From positions 9,521 to 73,520 of IMG/VR virus record IMGVR_UViG_3300031548_000003: a stretch of 64,000 nt of DNA; one strand, written 5' to 3'. The number at the start of each line of letters is the position of its first letter. The stretch's first letter is position 1. A model generated the notes under the pieces. The model saw only the letters and a list, made by a program, of their open reading frames with translations, searched no databases and was not told the origin of the DNA. Made by a program: the position numbers and the translations under genes. This document shows positions 8,899 through 45,159 of the stretch, piece by piece. This DNA comes from a virus. Lineage: Duplodnaviria; Caudoviricetes.

Positions 8899-8900
8899 AT

Positions 8901-12900: not shown

Positions 12901-13379
12901 TTTGCACTTAGATTAGAAGAAACTACAGTAGAAGCAGCACCAGTAATCGTTGCTTGCTTTGAATCAATCTGAGTTTGTATTGCTGAGGTTACCCCACTTA
13001 CGTAACCGAGTTCTGTTGAGGTTACGGGTGATACAACTAAAAATCCATTTGAATCGGATACAATAGCTCTCGAAGCAGTAGTAGCTGCAAGTTTGGTTAG
13101 TGCTATTGCAGCAGAAGCGTTCACATCGGCATCAACTATTACACCTGCGGATATTGCCCCTACGCCTGATTGAGAGATAGTAAAATCTCCTGACACAGTC
13201 TGTGCAGCAGGTAAATTTGATCCATCTCCAATAAATATTTTTCCAGTAGCTAGTGTCCCAATATTATTAGCTACGCTACCTACTTCATTTGTAGTAGCAT
13301 CTCTTGTGATTAATGGATCACCAGAACCGTCTGCGAGGGTTCCTCCAAACTTAGAAAGACGATTTATTTTTAAACCCAT
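9993..13379 (-). CDS. Long tail fibre / receptor-binding protein (1128 aa)
   Basis: G/S/T-rich with recurring 'TELGYVSGVTSAIQTQ'-type fibre repeats and 'RFKILDNG' / 'GLGTLTP' fibre motifs. Confidence 0.7.
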   Translation of the reverse strand: MGLKINRLSKFGGTLADGSGDPLITRDATTNEVGSVANNIGTLATGKIFIGDGSNLPAAQTVSGDFTISQSGVGAISAGVIVDADVNASAAIALTKLAATTASRAIVSDSNGFLVVSPVTSTELGYVSGVTSAIQTQIDSKQATITGAASTVVSSNLSANIVAVTNGSGKLASSSVGTTQLGYISTLTSDAQTQLNARLSTSLGPVADGDIIYYNGSAWTNLPRGTSGQALYSTGSSIQWSTPTINGVPIGGTTGQYLAKLSGTDFDVDWTTLTLDKVTDVTADVDDVNILTGLSATGLTSTELGYVNGVTSSIQTQLENKLNNSLAYNAIFVGNTSGTPTQLSAGTNGQHLTIVGGSPVWTTPVTPGDVSGPGSSTNNAIARWNGTSGNAIQNSGIIIDDSNNVTGVVALTATTLTSTGLTTAASLNISSTLSNDDALTQILVRDVTGLIKYRAASSITGVSDGDYGDITVSGGGATWTVDNSVITFAKIQNSAAGLSVLGRSPNTSGNFAEIVAASDGNIIRRSGTSIDFGSIDLASSGAVGSSILAAANGGTGLSSLGTGIDTWLATPSWTNFNSLITGTAPYWATSGSTTITAPTLVGNPYFQGVSLFAPSGASVTGSPRVEIWGVSGGSILHLHNDAGIQLSTIDNTGASSFTTSASTTTGTAFSIAPGQFNPTSGSATFRALTITPSYNTTATYSGTAIDVDINPTITSTTGLTHIALRGTSGSVLIGNTTLGAATTRFEQWGIGTTTGINAVWKDNGGTERFKILDNGVVSITSAGNGNSWGGSWTATANNQYHTIFNPSITARGTTSDNIYGFDFSPSIIYGANNQVGSAVRINPSFTAGGFTGTFSTILSLQSSGTDLYRFRNDGTLFFGTSTNTRIAPSNSSGTVTAGGPTLKIAGELTSGTQTAVMLTTSASTNNNTTGTGTVVSLEAPSFSAATGSYSINLLRLTGSFSNSSATGGITAVLATPTLTYVSGNAIGFVWNPTVGTIAGNNYAFISSSGLHGLGTLTPTYQFHLKGTSANQNLFVVQEDGGTNLIEAIESGGVKQLGFFNAPPVGQQSVNTILVNNVTSGGSLSTISDYSDLTIYANDAAAIRNNFYRLTEKVLKLETALRNLGFSID

Positions 13380-13381
13380 CT

Positions 13382-15756: not shown

Positions 15757-16224
15757 TTAATACAGGTCAAAATTTATATATCCTGGTTTCCCAGTTACTT
15801 TGCGGGTCTTCTTCTTACGGTTTTTAGTAAGACTGTGAGATACGTGAAGCCAATCTGGATTTTGTTTGCCCCCGTTTTCCCAAATGATTTGATCAAAGGG
15901 TAATGATTTCACGATGAAATCAAATAGCTCTTTGTTAGAAGGTACCTTCTTTCCTAATCTCTCGAGCGTATCGTAATCAATATCCCCAGCTTCACCAAAA
16001 ATATGTTGAGACGCTTTGCTTGCTCCAGGCAACATTGCATTATATCTCTCACTTCGAAATACACAATGAACGAATGGTGCTATCCCAAAATGGTCAACGA
16101 TAGGATCATAGATGTTAACTGCCCATGCTGTTATGTTTGCTAATTGAATAGCAGATGGTTTATTGATAACACCAGTTGGTGCTTTTGTAGCTTCTTCATA
16201 TGTGAGATATTTGCTTATCTTCAT
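15757..16224 (-). CDS. Peptidase M15A-family endolysin (155 aa)
   Basis: Zn-peptidase motifs R...'SQH'-x-'GEAGD' and 'WLHVS'. Confidence 0.8.
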   Translation of the reverse strand: MKISKYLTYEEATKAPTGVINKPSAIQLANITAWAVNIYDPIVDHFGIAPFVHCVFRSERYNAMLPGASKASQHIFGEAGDIDYDTLERLGKKVPSNKELFDFIVKSLPFDQIIWENGGKQNPDWLHVSHSLTKNRKKKTRKVTGKPGYINFDLY

Positions 16225-16286
16225 AAAAAATAATAGCGCAGAAATGTTACGGCACTTCTTACGCTATAGGGGTTAGGGTTCAAAAA

Positions 16287-17048
16287 TTATTTTGTTTTTT
16301 TAGAAGGTTTTTCCTTTTTCGTTGTAAACCCGATTCGTTCTTCAAGAGCTGCAAGCATATCTTGATCTCCCATCAACTTGGAAACAGCAGAGTCTTCTTC
16401 GTTTCCTATGATAGCTTCTTCCCATTTAATTATAGGACCGTTCTTCTTCAGGATACCAGTGCTAAGTCCGATTCTAATCAAGGCTCTTATTGAGCGATCG
16501 CCTGATTCTAAAACTTCGAAATAATCTTCTGGGCGCTTCTCAGCCCATTCAACTACTCGATGCCTCATTAAATCATTAGACTCTCCGAAGAATCCTATAT
16601 GCGCTGCAAGCTCTTTTAAAGTTGAATCGTCAATTTCAAGAGCACTGGCTGCTGCACGTATCCTCATCTTACCAGATTTCAGCGCTACCTCTGCATCCCT
16701 TGCATCATTCATTTCTCTGAAGCGGGGCTTTGCACCTTGAGGTAGATTAGGTGAACCTTCACATTCTGGAGAGTTTTTCAAAAAGTCATACATGGATATT
16801 CCATTAATATCTTTCTGACCTTCTCTCACTTGGAAGGTTCTTCTGGACTGTGATAATTCAAAGAACTTACCTCTAGGTTCTCCTTTTTTATCTACTCCCT
16901 CTGTATAACGTACACCAGTCCCGTGACCTTTACCCAGTGCGTTAGCGTGATCAGTATAGGTGGAGAAACTTACTAATCCCCCTTTTGCTGCTACATCAGC
17001 GAGTAAGACGAAGTATTTGAAATTGTTTGTGTTAAAATTTTTAGCCAT
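16287..17048 (-). CDS. Conserved protein of the kind found immediately downstream of the capsid gene in crAss-like phages (253 aa)
   Basis: Position after MCP; 'WAEKRPEDYF...IRALIRIGLSTGILKK...IIGNEEDSAVSKL' C-terminal pattern. Confidence 0.5.
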   Translation of the reverse strand: MAKNFNTNNFKYFVLLADVAAKGGLVSFSTYTDHANALGKGHGTGVRYTEGVDKKGEPRGKFFELSQSRRTFQVREGQKDINGISMYDFLKNSPECEGSPNLPQGAKPRFREMNDARDAEVALKSGKMRIRAAASALEIDDSTLKELAAHIGFFGESNDLMRHRVVEWAEKRPEDYFEVLESGDRSIRALIRIGLSTGILKKNGPIIKWEEAIIGNEEDSAVSKLMGDQDMLAALEERIGFTTKKEKPSKKTK

Positions 17049-17066: not shown

Positions 17067-17092
17067 AGTTAGGTGCTTTTACACACCTAACT
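17067..17092 (-). terminator. Stem-loop downstream of the major capsid gene
   Basis: 9-bp perfect inverted repeat agttaggtg / cacctaact with an 8-nt loop; only a weak U-tract on the minus strand. Confidence 0.5.
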
Positions 17093-17110
17093 TTGATTAT
17101 ATTTAGTTAT

Positions 17111-18463
17111 TTAACTGTTGGCATAAATAAGCCCAAGTCGATTTGGAAGTACGACTTTAGGCATCATTTCGCTCAATAATTGGATCTCCAAACCATCATA
17201 AGCATTGCTTACTTCAGAGCCAGGAGAAGCCATACCTGTAATGAACTTCTGTACCATTTTACGAGAGCCGGTCTCACCATCACGGTAACGCAACTGTATA
17301 TTGCGCTCCCCACCGTCGGTCATTCCGAAATCAAGCACAAGTGCTGTGTTGCGGAAATCCTTAGCTGTAGAGCTAGGGGTTACTTGAGGTACTACTGCAC
17401 TGTCGGAGAACAATTCGTAATAACCTAAGTGAACCCTCTTACCTGCAATTTCATATGATTGGAAGTTAAGACCTGCAAGTTCTGCTGGTTTCTCACCAAG
17501 AGGTACTTGACGGTATCTATCCCCAAGAGCATGTTGTATATCAAACAAGAACTGTTCACCGCACAAAGCAATAAGATCGTTGCTTGCATCTTGCACATAC
17601 ATTTGCTTCAAGAAGTTAGAAAGGTCTGCCTCTTGTACACCGATTGCAGAAGAGAAACCTACGTTTACTCCACTGTTTTCCGCGTACTCAATAAGCCCAC
17701 GAGTTGTGTTTGTTCCTGTTAGAGTAGATGAATTGTAGCGCTTACCGAACACGGCAAGAGCCTCCCCGTCTCTCATGAACTCCTTTTGGAACAAAGGCTC
17801 CTGTTTAAAATACCATGATTTATCATCAATCCAGGTCTTCTGATTTAACATGTCAGATGTAACCTTCAGCTTAGAGCGAAGAATCTGCATCACGTTATAA
17901 TCCTCAGTTGGTAAGAATGATCTTACGCCACCTGCATCAGATGAACCTTCAGCAAATGCAGATGCAATGTGTCCGATCTTAGCAGTAGAAGGTAGCAATG
18001 CTGCTGACCAGTTACCACCTCCGAAACGAACAATATCAATTGTTTGAAATGCACCTGAATTTCCTACAGCAGTTACGATACCGTTCTCACCTGAGTCAGC
18101 TACGCGAACTAAATCGCCTACGATGAAGTAACCATAGTTACCATCTGCTGTCACATAAGAGATGTCAGTTGTTACTGTTGCTGTGGCGGTTGTGCCGTTA
18201 GCTACTGCACTGGCAGTTGTGCCTTTACGAGTACGATCAAGTACGTACCATGAGTGCACTTTGGAGCCTTGTGCTACTGATACTCCTGCAATTTTATCTG
18301 CAAGACTTTGCAAATAGTACTGGGGGTACTTAATTGTTAATACGCTAGAAATATCCGGTACTTCTAAGCCTGCATTGAACACATGTCCGCTGAGGATCGA
18401 GCCGTTACGTTGAATTGCCCCTGTTCCAATTATGGATGAGGGCAGTTGAGTGCCTGGAATCAT
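17111..18463 (-). CDS. Major capsid protein (450 aa)
   Basis: Terminase-portal-scaffold-MCP synteny; HK97-like features with an inserted beta domain ('GDLVRVADSGENGIVTAV'); downstream hairpin. Confidence 0.75.
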   Translation of the reverse strand: MIPGTQLPSSIIGTGAIQRNGSILSGHVFNAGLEVPDISSVLTIKYPQYYLQSLADKIAGVSVAQGSKVHSWYVLDRTRKGTTASAVANGTTATATVTTDISYVTADGNYGYFIVGDLVRVADSGENGIVTAVGNSGAFQTIDIVRFGGGNWSAALLPSTAKIGHIASAFAEGSSDAGGVRSFLPTEDYNVMQILRSKLKVTSDMLNQKTWIDDKSWYFKQEPLFQKEFMRDGEALAVFGKRYNSSTLTGTNTTRGLIEYAENSGVNVGFSSAIGVQEADLSNFLKQMYVQDASNDLIALCGEQFLFDIQHALGDRYRQVPLGEKPAELAGLNFQSYEIAGKRVHLGYYELFSDSAVVPQVTPSSTAKDFRNTALVLDFGMTDGGERNIQLRYRDGETGSRKMVQKFITGMASPGSEVSNAYDGLEIQLLSEMMPKVVLPNRLGLIYANS

Positions 18464-18500
18464 TAATTAATTTTAGTTTTTAGGTTGATTACTTTTTCAC

Positions 18501-20307: not shown

Positions 20308-22478
20308 TAGTTACTTAAAAGTTGGAGTTTCCTATCATTCAATTTTGTACGAGATGTGATTAGTGTTTTGTCTAAGTTATTTTTAGACTTCTGGTCTTGT
20401 AATTGCATCTGTGCCATTAGTTGTTCTCTTTGCATATTCTGCTGGGCTGTAATTTGATCTTGTTGGTGTTGAGCTTCAGCAGCAGCTTGTTGTTGCTCCT
20501 GGCGTTGCTGGCTTACCCTACGTAGTGTCATTTTTCTTTGGAATTTCCTCACTGCCACTTTAGTATCTTCTTCGAGAAGAATAGCAAGCGCATCTTCCAG
20601 CGTGACTTGCTGTGATTGTAAGGCTACACCTACTAATTGTTCTAGTTTCTGACGATCTAACAGAAGTGGAGGCAACGATTTAACGATCACATCAAACTCA
20701 TCCATTGATATGTCAATGTTGTCTTTTAGAAAGTCTATTCCAGTATCACCTATAATTGTCGCAAACACTTCTTTACCCGCCCAGGCGATCTTTACCATCT
20801 TGGCTTGCTGATTCAGCACTCTTGTGCAGAATCGCTCGAATCCCTTGAAATAAGGGGCTGTAATAAGATTTGATTGGAAAAGAGCTGCTTGGGTTACACC
20901 TACTGCTTGAGAAGACCCCTGCACTACTCCCTGGCGTTCTGCGGAGATACCACTTACACTGTCCATTTTCGAATCAATGTAATTCATGATGTTGATGTAC
21001 TGACTAACAGATTCGGATAGAGTCAGGTCAAACTCTTTAAACATGTTGAGGTTACCCTGTCCCATCTGGTATTCCTTAGAATTAGTGTAGAGGATTCCAG
21101 ATGTTTTCATGTATCCAATGATCTGCTCAGTGGTCATGTTTTCTGGCTTCATAGCCAGATCATAAACAAATCCCTTCGCTCCTGCCCTAGCCATAGCTAG
21201 CTGCATATTATAGACAGTTATGTCTTTTAATAACTGAAGCCCGGCTAATTGTTCGACCATACTTACTGACTTACCAAGTAAGAAATCAGGTACCCAGACT
21301 TTATAGGGAGGCTCTGATTTTTCTATTCTGGATAGGTCTCTTCCTTGATTTGGGCATTCCCCCCACTCTTTAATTATTGTCCCTCCGATAAGCGTGCATT
21401 GTCTCCATGTTTGCATCTTATTGGAGATAATCTTATCCTTATCGCGTTTACGAATTATATCATCGGTTACATCATGAAGGAATTTTCCTTTTTCGTTCTC
21501 TTCATATTTATTAGAAATGATTTTATAGTCATTCCAACAGGCTCGAATAACAAGACATCTGGGGGTACCGTCTACTATTTTGAACCATTTAACAGCCTGA
21601 TTAGGCATCGTAGAGTAAGCTGAATGGTTACTGTGGTTTGGACGAAGCTGTTCACCTAGTCCTAGATACTCAGTGTAAGAGGAATAAGCTTCAGTCACTT
21701 CTTCAGTTGTTAGTCCGTATCTTTCAGCCGCCGCTGCTATAGGTAAATATTCTACTTCACCGAAGTAAGTAGAATCGGATAACATGTCATCTGTTGCATT
21801 AGGGTCAAATATGAAACATAGGGGGTCTACTCTTCTCGCTTGGGGGATGCCTCGCTTAATTTCATTGCATACAATAGCTCTGTGAACAATTAAAACATCA
21901 CGAAAAAGAGCGAGTCTTTTATCATCCCAATGTGTAGTCTGAGCAATGAATTTTAGGGCAGACTCCATAAGAATAACAAACTTATCTTTCCAGGAAAGGT
22001 CCATGTATTCGTCAAGCTCTTGCTCTGTTTGAGGGATGTACTCGTCTGCACCTACATTTAGCCCTACTGCCTGCTGTACAAATTGAGCGGTAGATTGAAG
22101 TCTACGTTCTACTCGTAGCCTCTCTTTCTCCTCTAGTTTTCGGGCAATGGCTTCGCTGTTGATCGCTCTTGCTTTTATCTCATAGCCTCTTTCCTCTAGT
22201 TCTCCAAGCAAAAGTTTTACTTTATTTTTGATTTCGTTGATAGTTAACCATAACGAAGGAAGAACAGATCCATCTTCGGCTGTTTGTAAGTGATCGGCCA
22301 TATCACTTGAAGTACCTTGTTGGAAGAGCTTATATAGCTCTGCCATAATTCGGTAATTCTGAACATATCCATCAGTAAAACTGTTGGATACTATGGCGCG
22401 ACACCAGTCTCTGTGATAATCTTCGTCCTTCTCCTTATTGGATTTATCTATTCTAGGAAATGCGTTGTTATTAACCAT
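20307..22478 (-). CDS. Portal protein (723 aa)
   Basis: Follows terminase; portal-like helical body, 'RRVDPLCFIFD' motif and Gln-rich C-terminal barrel helix. Confidence 0.8.
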   Translation of the reverse strand: MVNNNAFPRIDKSNKEKDEDYHRDWCRAIVSNSFTDGYVQNYRIMAELYKLFQQGTSSDMADHLQTAEDGSVLPSLWLTINEIKNKVKLLLGELEERGYEIKARAINSEAIARKLEEKERLRVERRLQSTAQFVQQAVGLNVGADEYIPQTEQELDEYMDLSWKDKFVILMESALKFIAQTTHWDDKRLALFRDVLIVHRAIVCNEIKRGIPQARRVDPLCFIFDPNATDDMLSDSTYFGEVEYLPIAAAAERYGLTTEEVTEAYSSYTEYLGLGEQLRPNHSNHSAYSTMPNQAVKWFKIVDGTPRCLVIRACWNDYKIISNKYEENEKGKFLHDVTDDIIRKRDKDKIISNKMQTWRQCTLIGGTIIKEWGECPNQGRDLSRIEKSEPPYKVWVPDFLLGKSVSMVEQLAGLQLLKDITVYNMQLAMARAGAKGFVYDLAMKPENMTTEQIIGYMKTSGILYTNSKEYQMGQGNLNMFKEFDLTLSESVSQYINIMNYIDSKMDSVSGISAERQGVVQGSSQAVGVTQAALFQSNLITAPYFKGFERFCTRVLNQQAKMVKIAWAGKEVFATIIGDTGIDFLKDNIDISMDEFDVIVKSLPPLLLDRQKLEQLVGVALQSQQVTLEDALAILLEEDTKVAVRKFQRKMTLRRVSQQRQEQQQAAAEAQHQQDQITAQQNMQREQLMAQMQLQDQKSKNNLDKTLITSRTKLNDRKLQLLSN

Positions 22479-24378
22479 ATTTGAACAGTGGGTGAGATGG
22501 TAATGTTAATCTCTTAATTGGGGCTGCTGAAGAAATGATTTGTATTCTGTTTCCTACTTTTTGATATTGATATCGAGGAGTTGATTGATCTATTTCGGAT
22601 GCTAGTTTTGCTGCTTTACGATCTCCTTGCAAAAGCACAAGAAACCATCCCCATGCAATAGCTAAATCATCCTGAGCATGATCATCTCCAAATACTTTGT
22701 GTTGTTCTAACAGCTTTATCGAAGGAATAAATTCTGAATACTTGTCAATATAATCTTCCATCAACCCCATCATCTGTTGCTTACGTTCTTCAGTCATCTT
22801 TACTGAGTGCTTCATCTCATAGCCAGTTTTAGCTGTACCAATTGATTTAGGAACAAGCGGTAGGAGTTGAGGATAATGTTCTTTGAAGTAGTTGATCATT
22901 CTAGCTCGATTGTCTTCTATAAGAACCTTAGCGTTGTTGTACCACTGAAGGCACATTGCAGATTGCTCAAAGAACTTGTCTAGTTTCTCTGGACGATCAC
23001 AATATTCTAATACAAGTTTTGGTGGTTCTAATCCAAATGGTTTTGCGCCTATTGCTAGAGCTAGTTCGGATACGTCTCTGGATACTTTTAAATTATCATG
23101 ATCCGCTGGATCTGATCCTGCTAAGTAAGCATTCACTCTTGCATTGTCGGGGAGTTCATAAACTATAACCTTACCGTTGTTTGTATCTGGTACGAAGTCA
23201 ACTCCTCCATCTGGTTTTCTTCTCATGAAGCCAACTCTTTTCTCAGGGGCTTCACTCATCACTTTTATGATTTGAGTGTTGATGAGTTGGACGTTACCTA
23301 CACCACCTTCCGTAACTTGATTGAAAGCATCTTTATCACAAAGAGGATATTTTTGAATAAAAGCTTCACGTACTTTTCTTGTAGCTTGTCTGATTCTATA
23401 ACGTTCGTATATGATCCAACGAATAGCTTCCTTAATTAAGTCTTGACCAAATTCACCAACTATTAATCCGTGATAACCATGAACAGCAAAACGATCAAGA
23501 TCATAAGCTTCGTTGTTCATATAAAGCTCCATCAAACCTCTTCCATCGCGAGTTATGTCTCCTACGGTCCCGAGCACAACTGCGGGCGAAACCCTCCGAG
23601 TATTTAATTTCAAACAGTCTTCACTGTATGCCCACAATTCCAAAAGCGGTTCAATTTTTCCAGCTTCATCAATTCTAAGTTTACTTAAAGCTTCACCTTC
23701 AAAATTCTGTGGCACAGGGGCTACAACATTCATCCAACTTTGTAAGCCTTTTTTGATTCGATTACCTGATGGGTCTTTCTCGTACCAAGCAAACTCCATG
23801 TAATCTCTTCTATCGGATGCTGTTGCTCTAGGACGTAACCAATCAGGTACGTTTTGATGAATAAACTTCACATGACGAAACATCTTTCGTGAGTCACTTT
23901 CTGACTTACTACAAGCACCAATCATGTAGAAAGGTTTTGTTGCGCAGTCATGCCAGTCATCCCACGCACCAATGCTCGTAAAGCCCCAGCGTCTGCGCTT
24001 GTATCCGACAATTCCTCTTCCTGGATTTTTTTGTAGGTCTTCTACTTTTCTAAAATATTCTTCTTGTCTTACTCTGAATTGAGGACTTATCTTACCCTTC
24101 TCTGGGTCACGTATTTTTGCGTAATTCAACCAACCATAACCTTTTCCAGTCAAGCCATCGTACCCGTTTATTAATCTATTTATTTCGGTTAGCTGATATT
24201 CCTGTTCCTCACGTTTGTCTTTAAATTTCTCAGGGTATTTATTAGCTGTGTATTTTTTTTTAGGAATGAAGGTGGGTTTGACTGCAATGGAGTAGTAATA
24301 CTCAACATCTTTTTCAAGTTCCGGGATCCACTCGTTTTCAGGAATAATTCCAACAATGTCTTCGTTTTCCTTATTCAT
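22471..24378 (-). CDS. terL: Terminase large subunit (635 aa)
   Basis: Walker A 'KRRRWGFTS', Walker B 'LRIDEAGK', coupling motif 'GTVG', nuclease 'AGSDPAD' and 'DDLAIA'. Confidence 0.85.
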   Translation of the reverse strand: MNKENEDIVGIIPENEWIPELEKDVEYYYSIAVKPTFIPKKKYTANKYPEKFKDKREEQEYQLTEINRLINGYDGLTGKGYGWLNYAKIRDPEKGKISPQFRVRQEEYFRKVEDLQKNPGRGIVGYKRRRWGFTSIGAWDDWHDCATKPFYMIGACSKSESDSRKMFRHVKFIHQNVPDWLRPRATASDRRDYMEFAWYEKDPSGNRIKKGLQSWMNVVAPVPQNFEGEALSKLRIDEAGKIEPLLELWAYSEDCLKLNTRRVSPAVVLGTVGDITRDGRGLMELYMNNEAYDLDRFAVHGYHGLIVGEFGQDLIKEAIRWIIYERYRIRQATRKVREAFIQKYPLCDKDAFNQVTEGGVGNVQLINTQIIKVMSEAPEKRVGFMRRKPDGGVDFVPDTNNGKVIVYELPDNARVNAYLAGSDPADHDNLKVSRDVSELALAIGAKPFGLEPPKLVLEYCDRPEKLDKFFEQSAMCLQWYNNAKVLIEDNRARMINYFKEHYPQLLPLVPKSIGTAKTGYEMKHSVKMTEERKQQMMGLMEDYIDKYSEFIPSIKLLEQHKVFGDDHAQDDLAIAWGWFLVLLQGDRKAAKLASEIDQSTPRYQYQKVGNRIQIISSAAPIKRLTLPSHPLFKYG

Positions 24379-25382
24379 GCAGCGTATTCGAATGTGATCC
24401 CTCTATATTTCCAATCATGCCCAAGAATTCTTTGTCGGCATGTGGCTCTAATACTTCTTCTTAGAGAAGGATCATTAAAAACTTCAGTTGCTGCTTCTCT
24501 GGCGTTCCTATATATAACACCAGTATCAACACAACGTATCTTTTTAAATTGAGACTCCTTGAAAGTACTTTTAATGACATTAGGAATTCCTTCCAACTTT
24601 AACCATCTCCAAGTCCTACCGGTTAGTATACCTTCCACTGCACCTTGTGATGCGCCAACAATTCTAGCTATTTCAGCGAAGGCTATATTGGGTGTCTCAA
24701 ATGCTAACCTCTTTATTTGGATAGCTTGTTCCTTAGTAATAGTCTTGTTCTGTTTTTCTGGGTCAATACCCACAAATATTTTTGAATGATCTGGATTCAC
24801 ACACCATTCGTGTCCACAATCATTTAACACAACTTGCTTCTTCAGCAGCAATTTTACTCCTTTGTAATGTTCGTAGAAGAAGCGTCTCGCTTGGAGTGTT
24901 TTATTATCAATGTTGATTCTAGGGTGTCCCTCAGAGTATGCACCTGTCCATATCCAACAGCCAGTATTAGGCTCAAAGTCTACATATTCTTTGACCTGAT
25001 ATTGGATGCCCTTTCTCTGAATTTTAGAGAGATTCTTACGTTGCTCTTTTGTAAACTTATAATTTTTAGCCCCTTTACCTCCATCACAAAGATTAACTAA
25101 CTCTCCACCATTTTCAATTCTCCCGTAGAGCTCGATAAATTCAATCTCTTTGGCTATCGCTTCATCCAAGGTTAGATTGTCTACTAATATCTCTACCTCA
25201 ATCCCGTACTTAGCTTCTATGCGCTTCCACCATTCAGTTCTTTGTTCCTTATTAAAAGCTCTACCGTACTGTACTTCATGGCTTCCAGCCCCAGCATGAT
25301 GAGTGCCTCGACCAATGTAAACAGGTCTTCCTGTATCCTTTCTTAAGTGTCTATACACGTACTTGTTTCGCTTCTCTTCCAT
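24375..25382 (-). CDS. GIY-YIG homing endonuclease fused to NUMOD3, a degenerate HNH domain, HTH and NUMOD1 (335 aa)
   Basis: 'YVY-x10-YIG' with the later R, E and N catalytic residues; 'GCWIWTG...CVNPDH'; C-terminal 'IRCVDTGVIYRNAREAA'. Confidence 0.75.
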   Translation of the reverse strand: MEEKRNKYVYRHLRKDTGRPVYIGRGTHHAGAGSHEVQYGRAFNKEQRTEWWKRIEAKYGIEVEILVDNLTLDEAIAKEIEFIELYGRIENGGELVNLCDGGKGAKNYKFTKEQRKNLSKIQRKGIQYQVKEYVDFEPNTGCWIWTGAYSEGHPRINIDNKTLQARRFFYEHYKGVKLLLKKQVVLNDCGHEWCVNPDHSKIFVGIDPEKQNKTITKEQAIQIKRLAFETPNIAFAEIARIVGASQGAVEGILTGRTWRWLKLEGIPNVIKSTFKESQFKKIRCVDTGVIYRNAREAATEVFNDPSLRRSIRATCRQRILGHDWKYRGITFEYAA

Positions 25383-25453: not shown

Positions 25454-26284
25454 TCAAGCCCGTACAATCACTCCATTTAATATCTTCACTAACTCAATAA
25501 ATCTTTCAGGCCCTTCTTTCATAGAGATATAATTTGATAACCATTTAGGATATAAGAGTCCGTTGCTAAGAATGATTAAATGAGCAGTATCATATTTTTT
25601 TATAAGCTCAGAGTCATACTCCCCTTCTCCTGAAAATTTCCATTCAGTTGTAGGGTAAGCTGAATGAAGAGATTGCTTAAAATAAGCTTGAGACAATCCG
25701 TGTGGAATAGTATTAGGGGTTATTTTGTTCTTCCAGCACACAAAAGGTAAACTTATTTGATCTCTCCAACTGTTAGTTTCTATTTCATTATACCAATCAT
25801 CGGTGAGCTTTGTGACTAAAAGGTCTTGAGGGTTTCTGATAATTATACCACCTCTCCATAAACCGAACTGAGGAGGAAATCCGTCAAGCTGGTATCGGTT
25901 AATTTGCTGTTCAACTACTTCTTTCTTGTCTAGGTGTTTGGAGATTACTACTTCAGCTTCTTCATAAGCACAATCCCTCATAGGATGTTTATTGAACCAG
26001 ATGCCTCTCGTTTTCTCATTTACAAAATAGTTGAGGTCTCGTTTGATTTGGAAAGTAGCGTCTACATAAACTGATAAATCATATTCTGGAAAATGGTTCT
26101 TAATCTTATAGAACCTGGACAGCTTTTTACTATCCCCAGATTCTACTAATCTTATTTGCCATATATTACTCTTTAGACTAGGATTGTCTGTAATTGCTAC
26201 ATAATCCCAATCAGATGTGACTTTAGTTGGCTCCTTCAAGTCATCATAATCACCCATAATAACTGTATAAATCGCTTTTTTCAT
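25454..26284 (-). CDS. DUF616-family (GT-A fold) glycosyltransferase (276 aa)
   Basis: 'AIYTVIMGDYDDLKEP', 'SRFYKI', 'YVDA', 'HPMRDCAYEEA', 'RDQISLPFV' family pattern. Confidence 0.75.
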   Translation of the reverse strand: MKKAIYTVIMGDYDDLKEPTKVTSDWDYVAITDNPSLKSNIWQIRLVESGDSKKLSRFYKIKNHFPEYDLSVYVDATFQIKRDLNYFVNEKTRGIWFNKHPMRDCAYEEAEVVISKHLDKKEVVEQQINRYQLDGFPPQFGLWRGGIIIRNPQDLLVTKLTDDWYNEIETNSWRDQISLPFVCWKNKITPNTIPHGLSQAYFKQSLHSAYPTTEWKFSGEGEYDSELIKKYDTAHLIILSNGLLYPKWLSNYISMKEGPERFIELVKILNGVIVRA

Positions 26285-26293
26285 AAAGACTAA

Positions 26294-26319
26294 AACCCGC
26301 CACAGAATTGCAGCGGGTT
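26294..26319 (-). terminator. Intrinsic terminator after the 80-aa gene
   Basis: AACCCGC / GCGGGTT stem followed by TTAGTCTTT on the minus strand. Confidence 0.65.
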
Positions 26320-26341
26320 AAAGAAAGGGAGGGAATTAAGA

Positions 26342-26584
26342 CTAGCTTCCGGTTGAATCTGTAGCAGAAATATCTGTGTTCAGATCATCAAACGATACTT
26401 GAGCAGTGATTTGAGTACCATCCGATGTGATGATAATACAATCCTCATCAGAAGCTCCTGTAGGTATTACCTTAGAATCGTTAAGATTCACGGTGATATC
26501 CTTGCCTGAAGAGAATGATACAGAAGATCCATTCGGTCTTACTATTTTGGTCGCTGTTACAGTAACCAAACTTTTTTGTGCCAT
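26342..26584 (-). CDS. Small Ser/Thr-rich protein (80 aa), possible virion decoration protein
   Basis: Own promoter-like motif (26631-26643) and terminator; beta-rich, S/T/D-rich sequence. Confidence 0.55.
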   Translation of the reverse strand: MAQKSLVTVTATKIVRPNGSSVSFSSGKDITVNLNDSKVIPTGASDEDCIIITSDGTQITAQVSFDDLNTDISATDSTGS

Positions 26585-26657
26585 TAGGTTATTTAGTTAG
26601 AAATTAATTAATTGTGTAATTACTAACTATCAATTATTGTGCCTAATTTAGTTATTT

Positions 26658-27191
26658 TTAGATAGGAACACAGACCAGTACTTTATCCGCTACCCTTGGG
26701 TGATTTTCCAGTTGTTCATCCATAAACTCAAATCTATACTCTTTTAGCATCCCCATGAAGATTTTAGCATCTTCCAGTGTTTGATCATCTAGGATGATGA
26801 GATGTTTTAAGGGGTGTGATAGTATTATTTCTAGTTCCCTGGTAAGTATTTTGTTTTGATGGAAATCAGAGGTTTCTCCTTTTTCGATAAGGTCTGAATG
26901 CCCCCCAGTTCCAGGTCCTGCCGGATGTGCATCGAGAAATATCACAGCAGGTTCAGTCAAGTTTAACATTTCAGGTAAACAATCAGCAGATTTTCCTAAG
27001 AATAATTCCACCGGTTTATCTCTAAATCTCAGTACACATCTGTTATAGAACTCTTCAAACACTTCTACACTCTTTATCTGATCGAATCCGGCCTTAAGCG
27101 CCCTATTAATACTTTCTCCCATACAGGAGCCTGTCTCCAGATATGTACTTGAAAAGTATCGAAAATCCTCTATTCTGAATAATTTAGACAT
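26658..27191 (-). CDS. Class I SAM-dependent methyltransferase-like protein (177 aa)
   Basis: 'YLETGS-x-GES', 'IKSVEV', 'FLGKS', 'IFLDAH' Rossmann-type methyltransferase pattern. Confidence 0.55.
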   Translation of the reverse strand: MSKLFRIEDFRYFSSTYLETGSCMGESINRALKAGFDQIKSVEVFEEFYNRCVLRFRDKPVELFLGKSADCLPEMLNLTEPAVIFLDAHPAGPGTGGHSDLIEKGETSDFHQNKILTRELEIILSHPLKHLIILDDQTLEDAKIFMGMLKEYRFEFMDEQLENHPRVADKVLVCVPI

Positions 27192-28182
27192 TATCGTATA
27201 TTTCTTTAATAATTTGTTTGATATTATAGGTGTATTCCCAATTTGAATAGTGAGACCGAAATTTGGTCATATCAGACACATACCATTTATGGTCTCCTAC
27301 TCTTGGGGTATCGTTGAAGGTGACATTCATTTTCCTTCCAGTCAGTTCCTCGCACATATCAATTGCTTCCAGTACGCTACAATTTGAATGAGTTCCTCCA
27401 CCAAGATTATACACTTCCCCCGGTCGAGGGTTCTTCCTGAACTCTTCAAAAGCAGTGATGACATCGTAAGCGTGAATATTATCCCTTACCTGAAGACCAC
27501 CATACCCTATCACACAGTATGGTAAATCATATTTCGCACACTTCACCAAGTAATTAAGAAACCCGTGAAGTTGAGTACCAGCATGGGCTGAACCTGTTAA
27601 ACATCCGCCTCTAAAGACTCCCGTCTTGATTCCAAAGTATCGCCCATATTCTTGGGCGTAGAGGTCTCCGGCAGTTTTGGAAACTCCAAAAAGACTATGA
27701 GTTGTTTGATCAATTGAGGTAGCCTCATCAAATCCGAAGACTAGCTCAGGAGGTGGGATGAATCTATTCTGGAAACGCTTAACTTCAATGTTCAAGTTTC
27801 CGTAAACCTTATTGGTTGAAAGTTGAATGAATACAGCTTCTGGACAATATTGCCTTGTAAGTTCAAGAAGGTTAAGAGTACCGAGTCCATTTACTTCAAA
27901 GTCTTCAATGGGCACTTTGGCAGCAAAATCGTGAGATGGTTGTGCGGCAGTATGGATGATGTAATCAAACTTGTGACTCTGAAACAGTTCTTCTAACTGA
28001 TTGTAATTCCTAATGTCAGCGAAGCTATGAGTGTAATTGAATTGTAGGGGGGCTTCTTGTCGTTCAGTTCCAAACCATTTACTCCTCTGCTGATTATCAA
28101 TACCTACTATCTCATGATCTTTATAAAATTTCACTGCTTCTGAGCCTATCAGGCCCAGAGAACCTGTAATACAAATTTTCAT
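27184..28182 (-). CDS. NAD-dependent nucleotide-sugar epimerase/dehydratase, CDP-paratose 2-epimerase (RfbE)-like (332 aa)
   Basis: 'ITGSLGLIGS' dinucleotide-binding motif, 'HTAAQPSH', 'STNKVYG', catalytic 'FGVSK', and 'FRGGCLTG...LHGFL'. Confidence 0.85.
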   Translation of the reverse strand: MKICITGSLGLIGSEAVKFYKDHEIVGIDNQQRSKWFGTERQEAPLQFNYTHSFADIRNYNQLEELFQSHKFDYIIHTAAQPSHDFAAKVPIEDFEVNGLGTLNLLELTRQYCPEAVFIQLSTNKVYGNLNIEVKRFQNRFIPPPELVFGFDEATSIDQTTHSLFGVSKTAGDLYAQEYGRYFGIKTGVFRGGCLTGSAHAGTQLHGFLNYLVKCAKYDLPYCVIGYGGLQVRDNIHAYDVITAFEEFRKNPRPGEVYNLGGGTHSNCSVLEAIDMCEELTGRKMNVTFNDTPRVGDHKWYVSDMTKFRSHYSNWEYTYNIKQIIKEIYDNV

Positions 28183-30323
28183 CGTTTATTATGGGGTAAA
28201 ATGAAATCTAAATAAGGGTCAAGAGCAGACGAAGATTGAAGTCCTGACTTATTGGTCAGGAACATCACATTGGCTCTATAGTAGTAATCAATAAGTCTAT
28301 TTTCCAAGATGGAGTGGCGAGGTTGTTTGTAATAGAGGTCAAACCCTCTTTTTCTAAACTTCGCTAACCAGTAACTTTGGTACTGTTCGTTGAAATGATT
28401 TTTACCCCCTTGTCCGGGGATAGCAGCTCCGAATAGAATCAAATCAGCAGATTTACTAATGCTCTCTACTAAAGTGTCTGCATACATTTCTTCAAGATGC
28501 TCCGCTACTTCCATGCAAATAGCTAAATTCCATTTTCCACCAATGAATGGTCTTCTGAGGTCGTGGTCAATATAATTTTTAGTGAGTAGGAGATTTCGCG
28601 GAATTTTGAAATCAATAGCTGTATAATTTTCAAGTCCTACCCCCCATTGACCAATACCCGATCCAAAATCAACAACTGAATCTGAATCATTAAAGACATT
28701 CAGTCCTTTGAGAACTTTAAACATCTCCTGAGCCGATCTGGTGCCCCCTTCTGATATTTCAGAGTAATACTCTTCAGTGTAGTCTTTAGTCCAGGTCCAG
28801 TTTTTTACTTCCTGTCTGAGTTGTTCAGTTGTAAGGGTTCTTTGTTTTTCGAGAACTTGTGAATTAGCCTCGTAGAAAGGATTTGCTCTCGAACTATTGG
28901 GTCCGACCCAATGATCAAAATGATACAGATCACCTCTTACTCTTTCTATCTTATAACCTAGTCTTCTGAATCTCTCACACCTTTCAACATCTTCATTTCC
29001 ATAGCTTATATAACTCTCATTCTCCCCACCGCCTTCAAAGAAGCTTGCCTTGTCAAACAACACTGCTCCACCAACACTAGGAGCGGCAATTGTATCTGAC
29101 CCGCTTTTGATGTCTTTAAAGACTTCCAAATCATATTTTGGGAAGATATTATTCCGAACTGATTGAGGAAGTCTTACAAACAGATACCCGTAGGGATAAA
29201 CCATGTCGGCTTTCCTTTCTCGAATAAGTTCCACTGATGATAGAAGTTGCATTGGGGCGAAAGCAACATCACAGTCATAATTAACGATGATGGGCGTTGT
29301 TGCCTCATGGGCCATACGATTTAACATCTTGGTCCTATGGAAGTTATTGAAGAGGAAATTCCGATACTTCACCCACTGAGAGACATACTCAAACTTATTA
29401 CCCCCCTGCTCCCCTACCGTTATATTCGTGTTGAAGTTTTGCTGGAGCAAAGAGATAATGAGTTCTAGGTTATTCTTTCTATCGTCATGGTCATAATATA
29501 CTGGAATCGTAAAGGTCACATCAGTCAGATCAATTTTCTTCCCCTCATGTTCAAATATTTCATACTTCTCATTTCTTAAATAGAAATTAATGTCACCCTC
29601 TTTCGTTATAAGATGATCTGCGAATAGATGGTTAGGCTGAATTACACGTTTGCAATTCGACAAATAAGACGACCACCAATGGAATGTAGAGTTAGCGATT
29701 ATCCATCCTTCAGTTACTAGCGTCCCAAACGCAAACTGATCTATATCTTTGTCAAATTTTGGGAAGAAGGCATTTTCCATACTCCCGAAGTGGAACTTAC
29801 ACCAATCAAGATCATCAGATATGAAAACAATATTACAGTTCTTGTAATCAAATTTTTGGAGGGCAAGAATATAATATAGAGCGGGTAGATTGTAGTATCC
29901 GGGTTTAGTTACATAGTCAGTTCGTCTTACCCCTACTGCAATAGTAGGTTTACTTAGTAGGTGGCTATATTTTTCCTTAATAGACTCTAAGTAGCTTTCT
30001 TTGAGTTTAAAGAGATTTTTTGTTTCGTTAGGGTCAAAGTATTTCTCATTTTGAAAATACCCTAATAGATCAACTGTTTGATTTTTATAATCAAATTGAT
30101 CTAAATAATCCTGAGCATACGCATAATGCGGCTCCTCAACAACAACATCTGCCTTAAAGAAATAACTTGTTTCAGGAAATTTAGTTTCGAAGTATTCAGA
30201 ATAACTCCAGTAGGGAATTTCGTATTCTGTGTTGTGTCGTTTAGAGAGACTATTAAGTATAGCTATTTGAAATAAACAATTACCAAATCTTCCATACTCA
30301 CCTAATCGAGTAAAAGTTATCAT
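28179..30323 (-). CDS. Tri-domain fusion: GT11 alpha-1,2-fucosyltransferase-like + GT-A (GT2/GT7-like) glycosyltransferase + SAM methyltransferase (714 aa)
   Basis: GT11: 'GRFGNCLFQ' and 'VGVRRTDY'. GT-A: 'YDCD' and 'GGGENESYISYGNEDVE'. Methyltransferase: 'VDFGSGIG' and 'CMEVAEHL...PGQGG'. Confidence 0.8.
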   Translation of the reverse strand: MITFTRLGEYGRFGNCLFQIAILNSLSKRHNTEYEIPYWSYSEYFETKFPETSYFFKADVVVEEPHYAYAQDYLDQFDYKNQTVDLLGYFQNEKYFDPNETKNLFKLKESYLESIKEKYSHLLSKPTIAVGVRRTDYVTKPGYYNLPALYYILALQKFDYKNCNIVFISDDLDWCKFHFGSMENAFFPKFDKDIDQFAFGTLVTEGWIIANSTFHWWSSYLSNCKRVIQPNHLFADHLITKEGDINFYLRNEKYEIFEHEGKKIDLTDVTFTIPVYYDHDDRKNNLELIISLLQQNFNTNITVGEQGGNKFEYVSQWVKYRNFLFNNFHRTKMLNRMAHEATTPIIVNYDCDVAFAPMQLLSSVELIRERKADMVYPYGYLFVRLPQSVRNNIFPKYDLEVFKDIKSGSDTIAAPSVGGAVLFDKASFFEGGGENESYISYGNEDVERCERFRRLGYKIERVRGDLYHFDHWVGPNSSRANPFYEANSQVLEKQRTLTTEQLRQEVKNWTWTKDYTEEYYSEISEGGTRSAQEMFKVLKGLNVFNDSDSVVDFGSGIGQWGVGLENYTAIDFKIPRNLLLTKNYIDHDLRRPFIGGKWNLAICMEVAEHLEEMYADTLVESISKSADLILFGAAIPGQGGKNHFNEQYQSYWLAKFRKRGFDLYYKQPRHSILENRLIDYYYRANVMFLTNKSGLQSSSALDPYLDFILPHNKR

Positions 30324-30742
30324 TAGTTGCTTGGGATTAAAAGGACTTTCTTTTTCGTTTGGTTCACGTTTAGTTAGGTTTTAGTTTGTCCACTTCCACA
30401 GCTACATTTTTTTTCATTTGGAACTTCAAGTACTTGCACTCCACAATGGTCTGCGTTATCCCAAAGTGTAGAATCATCACAGTTAAGAATCTCAAGAAGG
30501 TGCTTTGCTTCCTTTGGTGTGGTCTTTTTAGTGTTGTATATGATTAATGTTCTTTTCATATTTAGTTGAATGATCATTTAATATGATACATGAAATATCA
30601 CTACCAATTCCAGCAAAAGTTCCGCCCCAGAGACCGATAGTAAACGGCTCACAATTCAACCCTTTACACACAAGTACTGCTATTAGTCCGGCAAATACGC
30701 CTAATAAAACTCTAATAATAAATTCCATATTTTTAGTTAAAT

Positions 30743-31504
30743 TTAGTTATTTTCTTTAAATCGAAATGTTGTATAAGAGTGACATTTATCACACTGCTTC
30801 TGAATCTTCTTAACTCCTGCTGCTGTGTATCTTATCTTTGATGTTTTAAAACTATCACCCCCGCAGTTAGGGCAAGTTTCATCTTTGTCCCATCCACCTA
30901 TTGCCCCTAGGTGGGGATGATTTTTAATGTAAGGCTTAATCTTCTCATAGAGTTCTTCCAGAAGTTGAACATCACCTTTATTATAAGTAATCATTTCTTT
31001 AACAGCCGATTCGTCCCCTTTTAGTACCCTTAACCATAACCCCTTACTAGTCTCTATTTTACCCTCCCCTAGTAGGTGTTTACCTAAGTAGTCTAGGCGA
31101 TGAGAGGTAAATGTGGCTATCTTCTTAATTTCTTTCAGAGTATCCAGTTGCAGTATACCAGAAGGAAGAGGATCGAGTCCATGAAAAATTAGTCTGGCAT
31201 TAATTTTACGAGTATCAAAATGCTTGGAATTATGTCCTATTATAATATCGGCCTCTTCAAATACTTCCCTAATCTTTTTTAACACCACCAAGTCATTACT
31301 AACATCCTTCTTGAAGGCTTTAAGATCATCCAGAATTGATGAATTATAAATTGGCTTCTTTCCTAGAAACTTCCAAGCTATACAGATAATAGACCAATCT
31401 TGAAGAATATTATCATGTGGAATACTCTCCGGATATAGAGAGAAGGTTGCCGCCACTGCTGGTAAAGTTTCTATATCAAATAGAACAATTTTAGGTTCCA
31501 TCAA
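30743..31504 (-). CDS. RNase H-like / DnaQ-type 3'-5' exonuclease with C-terminal zinc ribbon (253 aa)
   Basis: 'LFDIET', 'GHNSKHFD', 'YNKGDV' Exo I-III motifs; CxxC...CxxC tail. Confidence 0.75.
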   Translation of the reverse strand: MMEPKIVLFDIETLPAVAATFSLYPESIPHDNILQDWSIICIAWKFLGKKPIYNSSILDDLKAFKKDVSNDLVVLKKIREVFEEADIIIGHNSKHFDTRKINARLIFHGLDPLPSGILQLDTLKEIKKIATFTSHRLDYLGKHLLGEGKIETSKGLWLRVLKGDESAVKEMITYNKGDVQLLEELYEKIKPYIKNHPHLGAIGGWDKDETCPNCGGDSFKTSKIRYTAAGVKKIQKQCDKCHSYTTFRFKENN

Positions 31505-35164: not shown

Positions 35165-35200
35165 AAACTTGTTTATTACTAAATACGTAAAATAACTAAT

Positions 35201-35671
35201 TTAGTTACATTTAGTTATTTTGGATATGCGTAACAAAATAAAGTACCCCAATAGATCTTGAATACTGTCTTCAGTATCTTCATTTAAGCCTTTATTAGCT
35301 ATTCTTGATAGTTTATCGTTTATCCTGGCTTGAATGGCTGTTACAGGATCAATATTAAATAATATACCGCTCTTTAAAGCTGAATCGCCGTACATAGCAT
35401 TCTTCTTTAGAAGAAGTTCTTTTAGCTCATCACATTCTTTTATTATTAAATCTCTTGAACTAAGGGGCTTGTTCTCGTTTAGGTCTGAATGTGTCTCATC
35501 ATATCCTAATTCTGTAGGCTCCAGATACAAAAAATTATCTCCATTTTGTACCAAATATTCACCCAATATATCATTACAAGTTATAATTTTGACTACTTGT
35601 CCAATATTAAGTCCATGACGAGTTACGTCATTTACAACCCTGACCCTGTCTCCTTCCTTAAATTTTAGCAT
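35201..35671 (-). CDS. SH3/KOW-like N-terminus + DUF1599-like (nucleotide-modification-associated) domain (156 aa)
   Basis: 'LLKKNAMYGDS...RINDKLSRI...EDSIQDLLGY' pattern. Confidence 0.6.
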   Translation of the reverse strand: MLKFKEGDRVRVVNDVTRHGLNIGQVVKIITCNDILGEYLVQNGDNFLYLEPTELGYDETHSDLNENKPLSSRDLIIKECDELKELLLKKNAMYGDSALKSGILFNIDPVTAIQARINDKLSRIANKGLNEDTEDSIQDLLGYFILLRISKITKCN

Positions 35672-44873: not shown

Positions 44874-45159
44874 CTAGGCGAGTACCAATGCCAATGTCGA
44901 GAAGATGATAGAAACAATTATAATTAAGGCATAATCGTCAATTTCAAAGTTTTTTCCGATTTTCATTTTTAGTTATTTTTAGTTATTTCCGAATTAAACG
45001 AGGAAACCTCTATGTACCAATCACAACCATTGTTATAAACAAATTGACCATATGCTTGCCAGTAATCATTAGGTATAGCTACGTATCTATAGCAGGTCTT
45101 TTTAAGAGGACATTCCTCATTTTTACACATTGATATATCAGACATAATTACCTCCTTAA

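Follow-up and report, generated by a model that had tools for sequence, protein, structure and literature searches.

The genes considered here lie at 25454-30323 of a 64,000-nucleotide (nt) stretch of viral DNA, bases 9521-73520 of the 73.5-kb linear IMG/VR virus record IMGVR_UViG_3300031548_000003 (CheckV completeness estimate, 60%); this stretch is referred to below as the window. Five co-oriented open reading frames (ORFs) on the minus strand fill the locus exactly (Table 1): in order of reading, P0001 (a fusion of two glycosyltransferase (GT) domains with a methyltransferase), P0005 (a short-chain dehydrogenase/reductase, SDR), P0002 (a separate methyltransferase), P0003 (a small Ser/Thr-rich protein) and P0004 (a DUF616 glycosyltransferase-like protein). 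P0001 and P0005 overlap by 4 nt, P0005 and P0002 by 8 nt, and the five genes form an operon-like string. They are real genes rather than chance ORFs: P0001 has 544 homologues, P0005 has thousands, and P0003 and P0004 have syntenic counterparts in a related phage (L003, below). Their content and common orientation had been read from the sequence in an earlier, search-free inspection (the original prediction); Pfam, PHROG, structure models and homologues bear both out.

The fusion protein P0001 is predicted to consist of three domains. Residues 11-228 match Pfam Glyco_transf_11 (PF01531; E 3.4e-12, 46.7 bits against a cut-off of 23.9). PHROGs divide the protein into a glycosyltransferase part, residues 1-241 (GT11; phrog_2644, E 1.6e-37), and a second family at 263-516, within which residues 417-471 match Pfam Glyco_transf_7C (E 3.9e-7, 30.1 bits against a cut-off of 23). 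The AlphaFold2 model, generated with 31 homologues as input, has a mean predicted local distance difference test score (pLDDT) of 90 and resolves three domains joined by short linkers. In Foldseek its middle domain finds GT-A enzymes (K4CP, which is a chondroitin polymerase, beta4GalT1, ppGalNAcT-2, TarP and WrtF; E 1e-9 to 1e-6) and its C-terminal domain finds a class I methyltransferase, 3dtn. The protein's own match to Methyltransf_23 is sub-threshold (13.6 bits against 27); homologues carry PF13489/PF08241. The residues that are invariant in the 31 homologues fall in all three domains: R133 and D136 in GT11; N348-D350-D352, E434-N435-E436 and E444-D445 in GT-A; D552, G554 and G558, which make up the DxGxGxG motif, in the methyltransferase. 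Motif I of GT11 enzymes is HxRRxD; its counterpart in P0001 and its homologues is VRR(G/T)DY, in which the Arg and the Asp are the invariant R133 and D136 and the His position is not conserved.

(A word on a rejected match: WrtF is a "fucosyltransferase", and its appearance in the Foldseek output was discarded as support for the GT11 domain because its fold is that of a GT-A fucosyltransferase (PMC12595478). The match therefore belongs to the middle domain, and the GT11 assignment is that of the Pfam and PHROG profiles only. A phmmer search of P0001 against all PDB chains returned nothing significant, the best hit, at E 0.35, being an acylhydrolase.)

P0002 passes the threshold of no family in Pfam, PHROG or NCBIfam, and its assignment comes from structure. 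The AlphaFold2 model (pLDDT 80) has a catechol-O-methyltransferase (COMT)-type fold in Foldseek (template-modelling score 0.6-0.68, E ~3e-7), a four-sequence profile places COMT first among PDB entries (E 0.03), and the ESM Atlas sets the protein among phage class I methyltransferases. Its S-adenosylmethionine (SAM)-binding motif, ETGSxxGxG, is conserved in four homologues. P0004 matches Pfam TOD1_MUCI70 (PF04765, formerly DUF616) with E 2.6e-10 and 40.5 bits against 21.4, over profile positions 146-290 of 314, and phrog_26101 with E 4e-33; its homologue in L003 is 35% identical. 

P0005 is a more equivocal case. Its closest solved relatives, over the full length, are the CDP (cytidine diphosphate)-tyvelose 2-epimerases (RfbE/TyvE) 9rl0 (E 1e-41) and 1orr (E 3e-36), with which it shares the NAD-binding motif GxxGxxG, the Ser/Thr (T123) and the Lys (K169). 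The catalytic Tyr of YxxxK differs: alignment to both structures puts Phe165 in its place. The same Phe is found in 120 of the 120 nearest homologues (of thousands of database matches), with Ser/Thr and Lys retained, and so it is a conserved feature of the clade and not a sign of decay. SDRs that function without the catalytic Tyr reportedly exist, CapE with its Ser-Met-Lys triad being an example. No NCBIfam equivalog reaches its cut-off with P0005. Many homologues, some of them on cellular contigs of megabase size, bear the automatic name "CDP-paratose 2-epimerase", which is probably a misannotation of the reaction carried out by this Phe-bearing clade. The "RfbE-like nucleotide-sugar epimerase" of the original prediction accordingly survives as an RfbE-like extended SDR, filed in that clade only and lacking the Ser/Thr-Tyr-Lys triad of RfbE proper; the epimerase part is unproven, since with Tyr replaced by Phe the activity can not be read off RfbE. 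P0005 is probably a nucleotide-sugar enzyme.

In sum, the locus encodes three glycosyltransferase and two methyltransferase domains with their motifs intact, and the predicted chemistry, in which two or three sugars are transferred and two O-methyl groups added alongside a sugar-nucleotide enzyme, is well supported. The expectation of a multi-sugar, methylated and capped glycan therefore holds at the biochemical level. One can think of the locus as a phage-borne cytoplasmic module for building and capping a short sugar chain. The GT11-type domain of P0001 would add one sugar (by family precedent, in an inverting alpha-1,2 fucosyl-type transfer from a guanosine diphosphate (GDP)-sugar), its metal-dependent GT-A domain would add a second, and its C-terminal SAM-dependent domain would then O-methylate the product. 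P0004 (DUF616/MUCI70-like) would add a further sugar or start the chain, P0002 would add a second methyl group, and P0005 would supply or bind an unusual, probably CDP-linked, sugar. On virion proteins, such a product would clothe the particle in methyl-capped glycan.

How widespread is the tri-domain enzyme? Among the 544 matches to P0001 the only names given by the source are "hypothetical" and "SAM-dependent methyltransferase". Nearly all of the best 120 are full-length (~700-750 amino acids (aa), >93% coverage, 39-80% identity); several homologues lie on contigs of 50-79 kb, those that are 58-80% identical on contigs of 52-76 kb. Judged by these matches, the enzyme represents a large unnamed metagenomic family. 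The tri-domain form was not found in cultured phages (tblastn against 50,697 phage records), and the locus as a whole has no match at the DNA level in the same records. An IMG/VR scan with the single P0001 protein returned nothing; an alignment-based scan did return loci. What a metagenome scan yielded was for the most part distant and on short contigs. At the level of GT11-GT-A(-methyltransferase) the family spans at least eight phage lineages. (That homologues of the SDR and of the tri-domain protein share contigs is inferred only from matching contig sizes of 24191, 4353, 4534 and 76377 bp.)

The company that the fused GT11-GT-A gene keeps elsewhere includes Stealth-like proteins, GT25 and GT2. 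Methyltransferase-type partners are found in at least nine other loci: a ~205-aa family (cluster 2, phrog_21658) lies directly upstream of the fused gene in seven, and P0002-like proteins are the partners in L008 and L016 (homologues of P0002 adjoin GT fusions in L008, L016 and L072). Several sugars plus two methylations would thus be a composition that recurs across lineages. Larger fusions also occur: in L016, an 82-kb viral contig, a 1426-aa ORF (8024-12304) joins the GT11-GT-A unit to a second GT-A-like copy.

Close relatives of the window are few. A scan with a profile of the terminase large subunit (TerL) yielded only two true ones, L002 and L003 (= L083), so that the lineage is sampled by three genomes. 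Both relatives carry a glycosylation cassette at the same site. In L003, whose TerL is 42% identical, the stretch immediately ahead of TerL holds the tri-domain gene, a homologue of P0003 and a DUF616 gene; the SDR and P0002 are missing. L002, whose TerL is 65% identical, has a 535-aa protein with a sub-threshold GT4-like N-terminus and a Methyltransf_23 C-terminus, followed by an 85-aa ORF, an HNH endonuclease gene and TerL. The more distant relative FpV4 has no glycosyltransferase gene before TerL. By this comparison the site is fixed, the set of enzymes is swapped, and in the wider group the cassette is accessory. A variable cassette at a fixed site is the pattern that one would expect of a surface structure under diversifying selection.

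The small protein P0003 stands somewhat apart. Family libraries yield no match and its ESM Atlas neighbours are unconvincing (scores <=0.84), but a homologue occupies the equivalent place in L003 (41% identical) and the 85-aa ORF of L002 is a weak one, with a similar C-terminal tail. P0003-like ORFs keep their position just upstream of TerL in all three genomes, irrespective of the surrounding glycosyltransferase genes, and no small ORF resembling P0003 was seen beside the GT fusions of other lineages. P0003 also looks like a separate expression unit, since a TAACTAAAnnTAACTAAA motif precedes it and a terminator-like hairpin, conserved in the relatives, follows it. The small Ser/Thr-rich protein of the original prediction is there and co-oriented. 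In the window TAACTAAAnnTAACTAAA is present 24 times against 2.8 expected, always on the coding strand of the arm in question, and some of its copies come immediately before the start of a gene, P0003 and the capsid gene among them. It is a candidate for a promoter or a translation-initiation element and differs from the TCAAACGAGAAA motif discussed below. Equivalent hairpins follow the small ORF in L003 (~13147-13176) and L002 (~8873-8901); their stem sequences differ yet remain self-complementary, that is, they covary, and a C-rich TCCCTCC tract precedes each of the three. P0003 is a candidate acceptor or small virion protein, or else an unrelated backbone gene; any role as a Soc-like decoration protein, as acceptor of the glycan or as a small terminase is speculation.

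The fused gene is found close to genes for making the head in several unrelated lineages. The clearest case is a 46-kb contig, L014, where the portal gene is followed by two methyltransferase genes, GT11-GT-A and GT2, and these in turn by the genes of the head protease, the head decoration protein and the major head protein. In L005 only 5 nt separate the end of the fusion from TerS-TerL; in L009, L011, L010 and L087 it lies 0.45-1.1 kb before the portal gene, and in L013 the portal gene is 5.6 kb downstream. It precedes TerL or portal in the window, L003 and L013, and it lies on the same strand as the head and packaging genes in L005, L009/L011, L010, L087 and L013. In Cellulophaga phage phi18:1 a methyltransferase gene (gp40) and a homologue of P0004 (gp41) are placed between portal/head-morphogenesis and protease/capsid genes, so that both glycosyltransferase families of the locus are found within head modules elsewhere, one in L014 and the other in phi18:1. 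That related phages keep glycan genes beside or inside the genes for building heads suggests, without proving it, that they sugar-coat their own particles. (A simple count of closeness to head genes was not retained as proof, since short IMG/VR contigs are biased towards the hallmark genes of the head and since, in L004, L007 and L016, the fused gene has a replication-block position.)

On what, then, would the glycan be placed? The five proteins have no transmembrane-like hydropathy (maximum KD19, 1.21) and all are predicted to be soluble. No initiating phosphoglycosyl transferase, flippase, polymerase or ABC exporter was named by Pfam, PHROG and NCBIfam for the five genes or by PHROG for the window's other large ORFs; the record contains no tyrosine integrase (PF00589); and no thymidylate-synthase homologue (PF00303), ThyX (PF02511) or Tet/JBP dioxygenase (PF12851) was found in its 73.5 kb, which may be incomplete. 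The lack of transmembrane segments, of glycan-export genes, of an integrase and of DNA-base-hydroxylating enzymes, together with the head-module cases, favors a phage-made acceptor in the cytoplasm. We infer that the soluble enzymes glycosylate such an acceptor, most likely a virion protein, and hold this tentatively, as something rather short of an even bet. The virion glycosylation of the original prediction thus gains comparative support while remaining at the level of a proposal. The candidates for acceptor, and they are candidates only, are the Ser/Thr-rich fibers (9993-15085), a 183-aa Ser/Thr-rich protein (8901-9452) and P0003. The Ser+Thr richness that the original prediction invoked is real (27% in the 1128-aa and 183-aa proteins, 22% in the 567-aa protein).

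A number of observations weigh against virion glycosylation and are best considered together. Nothing in the sequence identifies the acceptor, and fibers rich in Ser/Thr, being frequent among phages, do not count as evidence on their own. P0005 lacks the canonical catalytic Tyr, which weakens the notion of a phage that makes its own sugar. Searched by tblastn against the 50,697 phage records, P0001, P0002 and P0004 match no actinophage, which indicates, indirectly and short of a pairwise comparison, that homology to the enzymes proven in mycobacteriophages (Che8 gp110, Corndog gp38) is not detectable. The cyanomyovirus homologues of GT11 and GT-A are found in islands of host-metabolism genes, along with pstS, hli and transaldolase. 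Among the supporting contigs, many are short fragments from IMG/VR that were recognised as viral partly through their head genes, so that a tally of head proximity is biased, and in three long ones (L004, L007 and L016) the fused gene lies at the end of replication/recombination blocks. The position of the locus in the window is itself ambiguous: it comes after a DNA-polymerase exonuclease gene and sits at the junction of the replication block with the packaging and head genes. The sole recognisable signal upstream of it is a degenerate copy of the TCAAACGAGAAA...CCCCTAA motif, good copies of which are confined to 33.6-52.4 kb, the replication/early region. The original prediction's "late position" accordingly does not establish late expression, given the short-contig bias, the replication-block positions in long contigs, the cyanomyovirus islands and the window's own upstream motif. 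Finally, with the record estimated to be only 60% complete, genes scored as absent may lie beyond its ends.

Could the enzymes be aimed instead at the envelope of the host? They might modify undecaprenyl-linked precursors of O-antigen, capsule or O-glycan at the cytoplasmic face and leave export to host machinery; masking of receptors would then exclude superinfecting phages or stop the loss of progeny on cell debris. Soluble glycosyltransferases can act on lipid-linked acceptors, the closest cellular relatives of the GT11 domain are on Flavobacteriaceae chromosomal contigs, and fusions of glycosyltransferase with methyltransferase are known as terminators of bacterial polysaccharide chains (WsaE of Geobacillus and WbdD of E. 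coli O9a reportedly work in this way). Cyanomyovirus homologues that lie beside dideoxyhexose-pathway enzymes have been read as cell-surface modifiers (PMC12801897), and the authors of the phi18:1 study list lipopolysaccharide (LPS) modification as an option (PMC11946311). What makes a host target unlikely, although it is the most serious of the alternatives, is that the trappings of Gtr-type seroconversion (membrane GtrA/GtrB/GtrC, temperate lifestyle) are missing: Pfam, PHROG and hydropathy yield no Gtr-type or other membrane component, acetyltransferase, flippase or polymerase, and neither a tyrosine integrase nor any other gene for lysogeny was recognised, whereas the phages known for seroconversion are temperate. 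A product made in several steps and methylated twice would also be more elaborate than known phage serotype conversions, and the genes sit inside head modules in L014 and phi18:1.

That last placement, away from nucleotide metabolism, speaks also against the notion that a hydroxylated DNA base is decorated with sugars just before packaging, the sugars then being methylated, as protection against restriction and other defences. The setting in the window would fit, its locus lying between replication genes and terminase: DNA-modifying glycosyltransferases are reported to adjoin polymerases, helicases, methyltransferases, epimerases, second glycosyltransferases and terminases, and GT-A is the commoner class on DNA (bioRxiv 10.1101/2023.12.21.572611); such transfers of groups take place late, in the run-up to packaging (PMC13326640); and there is a DNA methyltransferase gene at 43501-44163. 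However, every known route requires a thymidylate-synthase homologue or a 5mYOX/Tet-JBP dioxygenase, of which the 73.5-kb record has none, and known pathways usually cluster the enzymes for the hydroxylated base with the glycosyltransferase (bioRxiv 10.1101/2023.12.21.572611; PMC13326640). GT11 and DUF616 are not among the described DNA glycosyltransferases (bioRxiv 10.1101/2023.12.21.572611), and the Foldseek matches listed are GT-A glycan or protein transferases and methyltransferases, with no DNA glucosyltransferase among them. The chance that the target is DNA appears slim, the smallest of those considered here. Scarcely more probable is some other cytoplasmic acceptor (a non-virion protein of phage or host, a lipid, or a small molecule such as a secreted or decoy product), with P0003 an unrelated backbone gene, such as one for a small packaging or regulatory protein. 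The upstream motif and terminator of P0003, and the constant place of P0003-like ORFs before TerL amid differing glycosyltransferase genes, would fit, and no analysis here identified the acceptor; but this alternative has no positive evidence and leaves the recurrence of glycosyltransferase/methyltransferase sets at head modules of unrelated phages unexplained.

Table 1. Positions in the window of the five genes, of neighboring genes and of sequence signals
Feature	Position	Strand	Basis or remark
P0001, 714 aa, predicted GT11-like (~1-241), GT-A with DxD (~263-516) and class I SAM methyltransferase (~525-700)	28179..30323	-	Pfam, PHROG, AlphaFold2, Foldseek, homologue alignment
P0005, 332 aa, extended SDR, RfbE (CDP-tyvelose 2-epimerase)-like clade	27184..28182	-	PDB homologues, alignment to 9rl0 and 1orr
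P0002, 177 aa, stand-alone class I O-methyltransferase fold (COMT/TylF-like)	26658..27191	-	AlphaFold2, Foldseek, PDB profile, ESM Atlas
P0003, 80 aa, Ser/Thr-rich, conserved C-terminal LSAT..STGS tail	26342..26584	-	30% Ser+Thr; homologues in L003, L002
P0004, 276 aa, DUF616/TOD1_MUCI70 glycosyltransferase-like	25454..26284	-	PF04765, phrog_26101
Degenerate TCAAACGAGAAA...CCCCTAA motif copy, 15-40 nt upstream of P0001 start codon	30338..30362	-	Sequence read
TAACTAAAnnTAACTAAA motif copy, sense-oriented, in front of P0003	26647..26664	-	Motif count in window
Terminator-like GC hairpin, 11 pairs, directly after P0003	26294..26319	-	Hairpin scan
HNH/homing endonuclease	24375..25382	-	PHROGs 1872, 314, 3593; between P0004 and TerL; context, not glycan machinery
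TerL, terminase large subunit	22471..24378	-	phrog_6681, E 4e-41; context
TAACTAAAnnTAACTAAA example sites	9454-9471, 17092-17109, 18462-18479 (upstream of the start of the capsid gene, 17111-18463), 26647-26664, 30732-30749, 35200-35217, 44968-44985, 54912-54929		

The locus was originally placed directly upstream of the terminase. This is off by one gene: that of a 335-aa HNH endonuclease intervenes. An HNH gene precedes TerL in L002 as well and is absent at the equivalent place in L003. The types of endonuclease flanking the terminase vary: HNH before TerL in the window and L002, GIY-YIG/NUMOD3 between TerL and portal (16071-16889) in L003. Just upstream of the locus, a 66-aa ORF (30528-30728, minus strand) has a strong transmembrane-like segment (KD19 2.73). 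Elsewhere in the window, within an ORF at 56038-57699 (plus strand), a tandem array of 12-nt period with ~50 registered copies (56185-56900) would encode a four-residue repeat in a 553-aa protein.

What sort of phage is this? The portal gene comes after TerL, the order TerL-portal-x-capsid is that of FpV4, and the closest solved match to the portal protein is crAss001 gp20 (E 3.5e-12); tblastn with the portal finds cr-phages, Flavobacterium phage FpV4 and Cellulophaga phages at 24-29% identity. The designation "crAss-like" can be kept only in a distant sense, through the portal; the capsid protein has no match among solved structures, and TerL gave one weak match. A Bacteroidota host is likely, to judge by the relatives of the portal, by the Flavobacterium affinity of the GT11 domain (its nearest cellular relatives, at 33-37% identity, are on large chromosomal contigs of Flavobacterium and other Flavobacteriaceae) and by the finding of no Shine-Dalgarno-like sequence upstream of the three start codons that were read. 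A sigma-70 promoter scan yielded fewer sites (30) than shuffled sequence (40) and is therefore uninformative for a phage of Bacteroidota type.

Clusters of phage glycosyltransferase genes, mycobacteriophage virion glycosylation and a giant-virus GT-GT-methyltransferase enzyme are already known. The literature searched contains no description of the tri-domain GT11-GT-A-methyltransferase family or its recurrent pairing with an extra methyltransferase, nor of its placement beside or inside head modules in several lineages, the swapping of cassettes at one site in close relatives, or the link to cultured Cellulophaga phages. If the proposal is carried further, methyl-capped virion glycan coats would be widespread outside actinophages, with GT11-GT-A(-methyltransferase) and DUF616 a modular, rapidly swapped kit with which phages that infect Bacteroidota and other bacteria of water and soil glycosylate capsid or fiber proteins, and P0003 perhaps a dedicated, glycan-bearing decoration protein; this extension is conceivable, and we are more doubtful of it than of virion glycosylation in the window's own phage. 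Virion glycosylation is established only for giant viruses of algae and for some mycobacteriophages, whose particles it protects against antibodies. Were it true also of Bacteroidota phages, including distant relatives of the crAss-like ones of the gut, it would affect recognition by immune systems and grazers, adhesion to mucus and particles, and engineering for therapy. Whatever the acceptor, the analysis defines a large unannotated family of trifunctional enzymes, predicted to carry out two sugar transfers and one methylation per chain, and an SDR clade, routinely labelled "CDP-paratose 2-epimerase", that lacks the canonical catalytic Tyr in the nearest 120 of thousands of database matches.

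The nearest architectural parallel comes from PBCV-1, a giant virus of a eukaryotic alga, in which A064R (two GT domains and a methyltransferase) assembles the disaccharide at the end of the capsid glycan and methylates it and A061L adds a second methyl group (PMC9614988). As in the window, the two GT domains come before a class I SAM methyltransferase at the C-terminus, and a separate methyltransferase gene is at hand; in PBCV-1 the enzymes are soluble and act in the cytoplasm. The order of domains differs (GT-A, a novel glycosyltransferase and methyltransferase in A064R; GT11, GT-A and methyltransferase in P0001), P0001 has no detectable sequence similarity to A064R (the deposited domain 1 of which was not matched in the phmmer search against PDB), and the activity of P0001 is predicted only. 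The parallel is one of architecture and not of homology. In mycobacteriophages, virion glycosylation has been described for which phage-encoded soluble glycosyltransferases are proposed (Che8 gp110, Corndog gp38, Myrna; Freeman et al. 2023, as cited in PMC12363180 and PMC11256854). The glycosyltransferase genes of Che8-type phages lie at the genome end next to packaging genes, and the coat proposed here would parallel glycosylation of capsid and tail tube. Unlike these phages, that of the window would have a Bacteroidota host, its locus encodes three GT domains, two methyltransferases and an SDR, and it is known from genes alone.

T4-like cyanophages (S-SM2, P-TIM68, S-H68, S-SCSM1) have homologues of P0001's first two domains (24-31% identity, query 1-519 summed over two pieces), often with nucleotide-sugar epimerases, GT25 and CDP-dideoxyhexose enzymes. 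In contrast to P0001 these are mostly annotated as separate genes, lack the fused methyltransferase and belong to host-metabolism islands instead of neighboring head genes; they have been interpreted as modifiers of the host cell wall or surface (PMC12801897). An island of S-H68 (MK016663, 318-10909) contains two GT11, GT25, two epimerases and a CDP-4-dehydro-6-deoxyglucose 3-dehydratase, which points to CDP-linked dideoxyhexose chemistry in phage glycan clusters.

A link to a phage in culture is Cellulophaga phage phi18:1 (Helsingorvirus), whose host belongs to the Flavobacteriaceae. P0004 has a true homologue there in gp41 (37% identity over 188 residues, E 6e-37), with the class I methyltransferase gp40 (PF13578) directly upstream. 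Its authors note the position of gp40-gp41 in the structural module, leave the function open and suggest modification of LPS or DNA (PMC11946311). The label "DNA methyltransferase" attached to gp40 (NC_021790, 8543-9010) derives from PF13578 (Methyltransf_24), which is generic for class I; a sugar or protein O-methyltransferase is more likely, we infer, and such labels on small class I methyltransferases beside phage glycosyltransferases are probably wrong. The differences from the window are considerable: phi18:1, an unrelated 39-kb siphovirus, has neither a GT11-GT-A fusion nor an SDR, its gp41 is longer (407 aa), and profile comparison detects no homology between gp40 and P0002, two methyltransferases that are analogous. 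Cultured Cellulophaga phages are nevertheless systems in which the question of the target can be settled.

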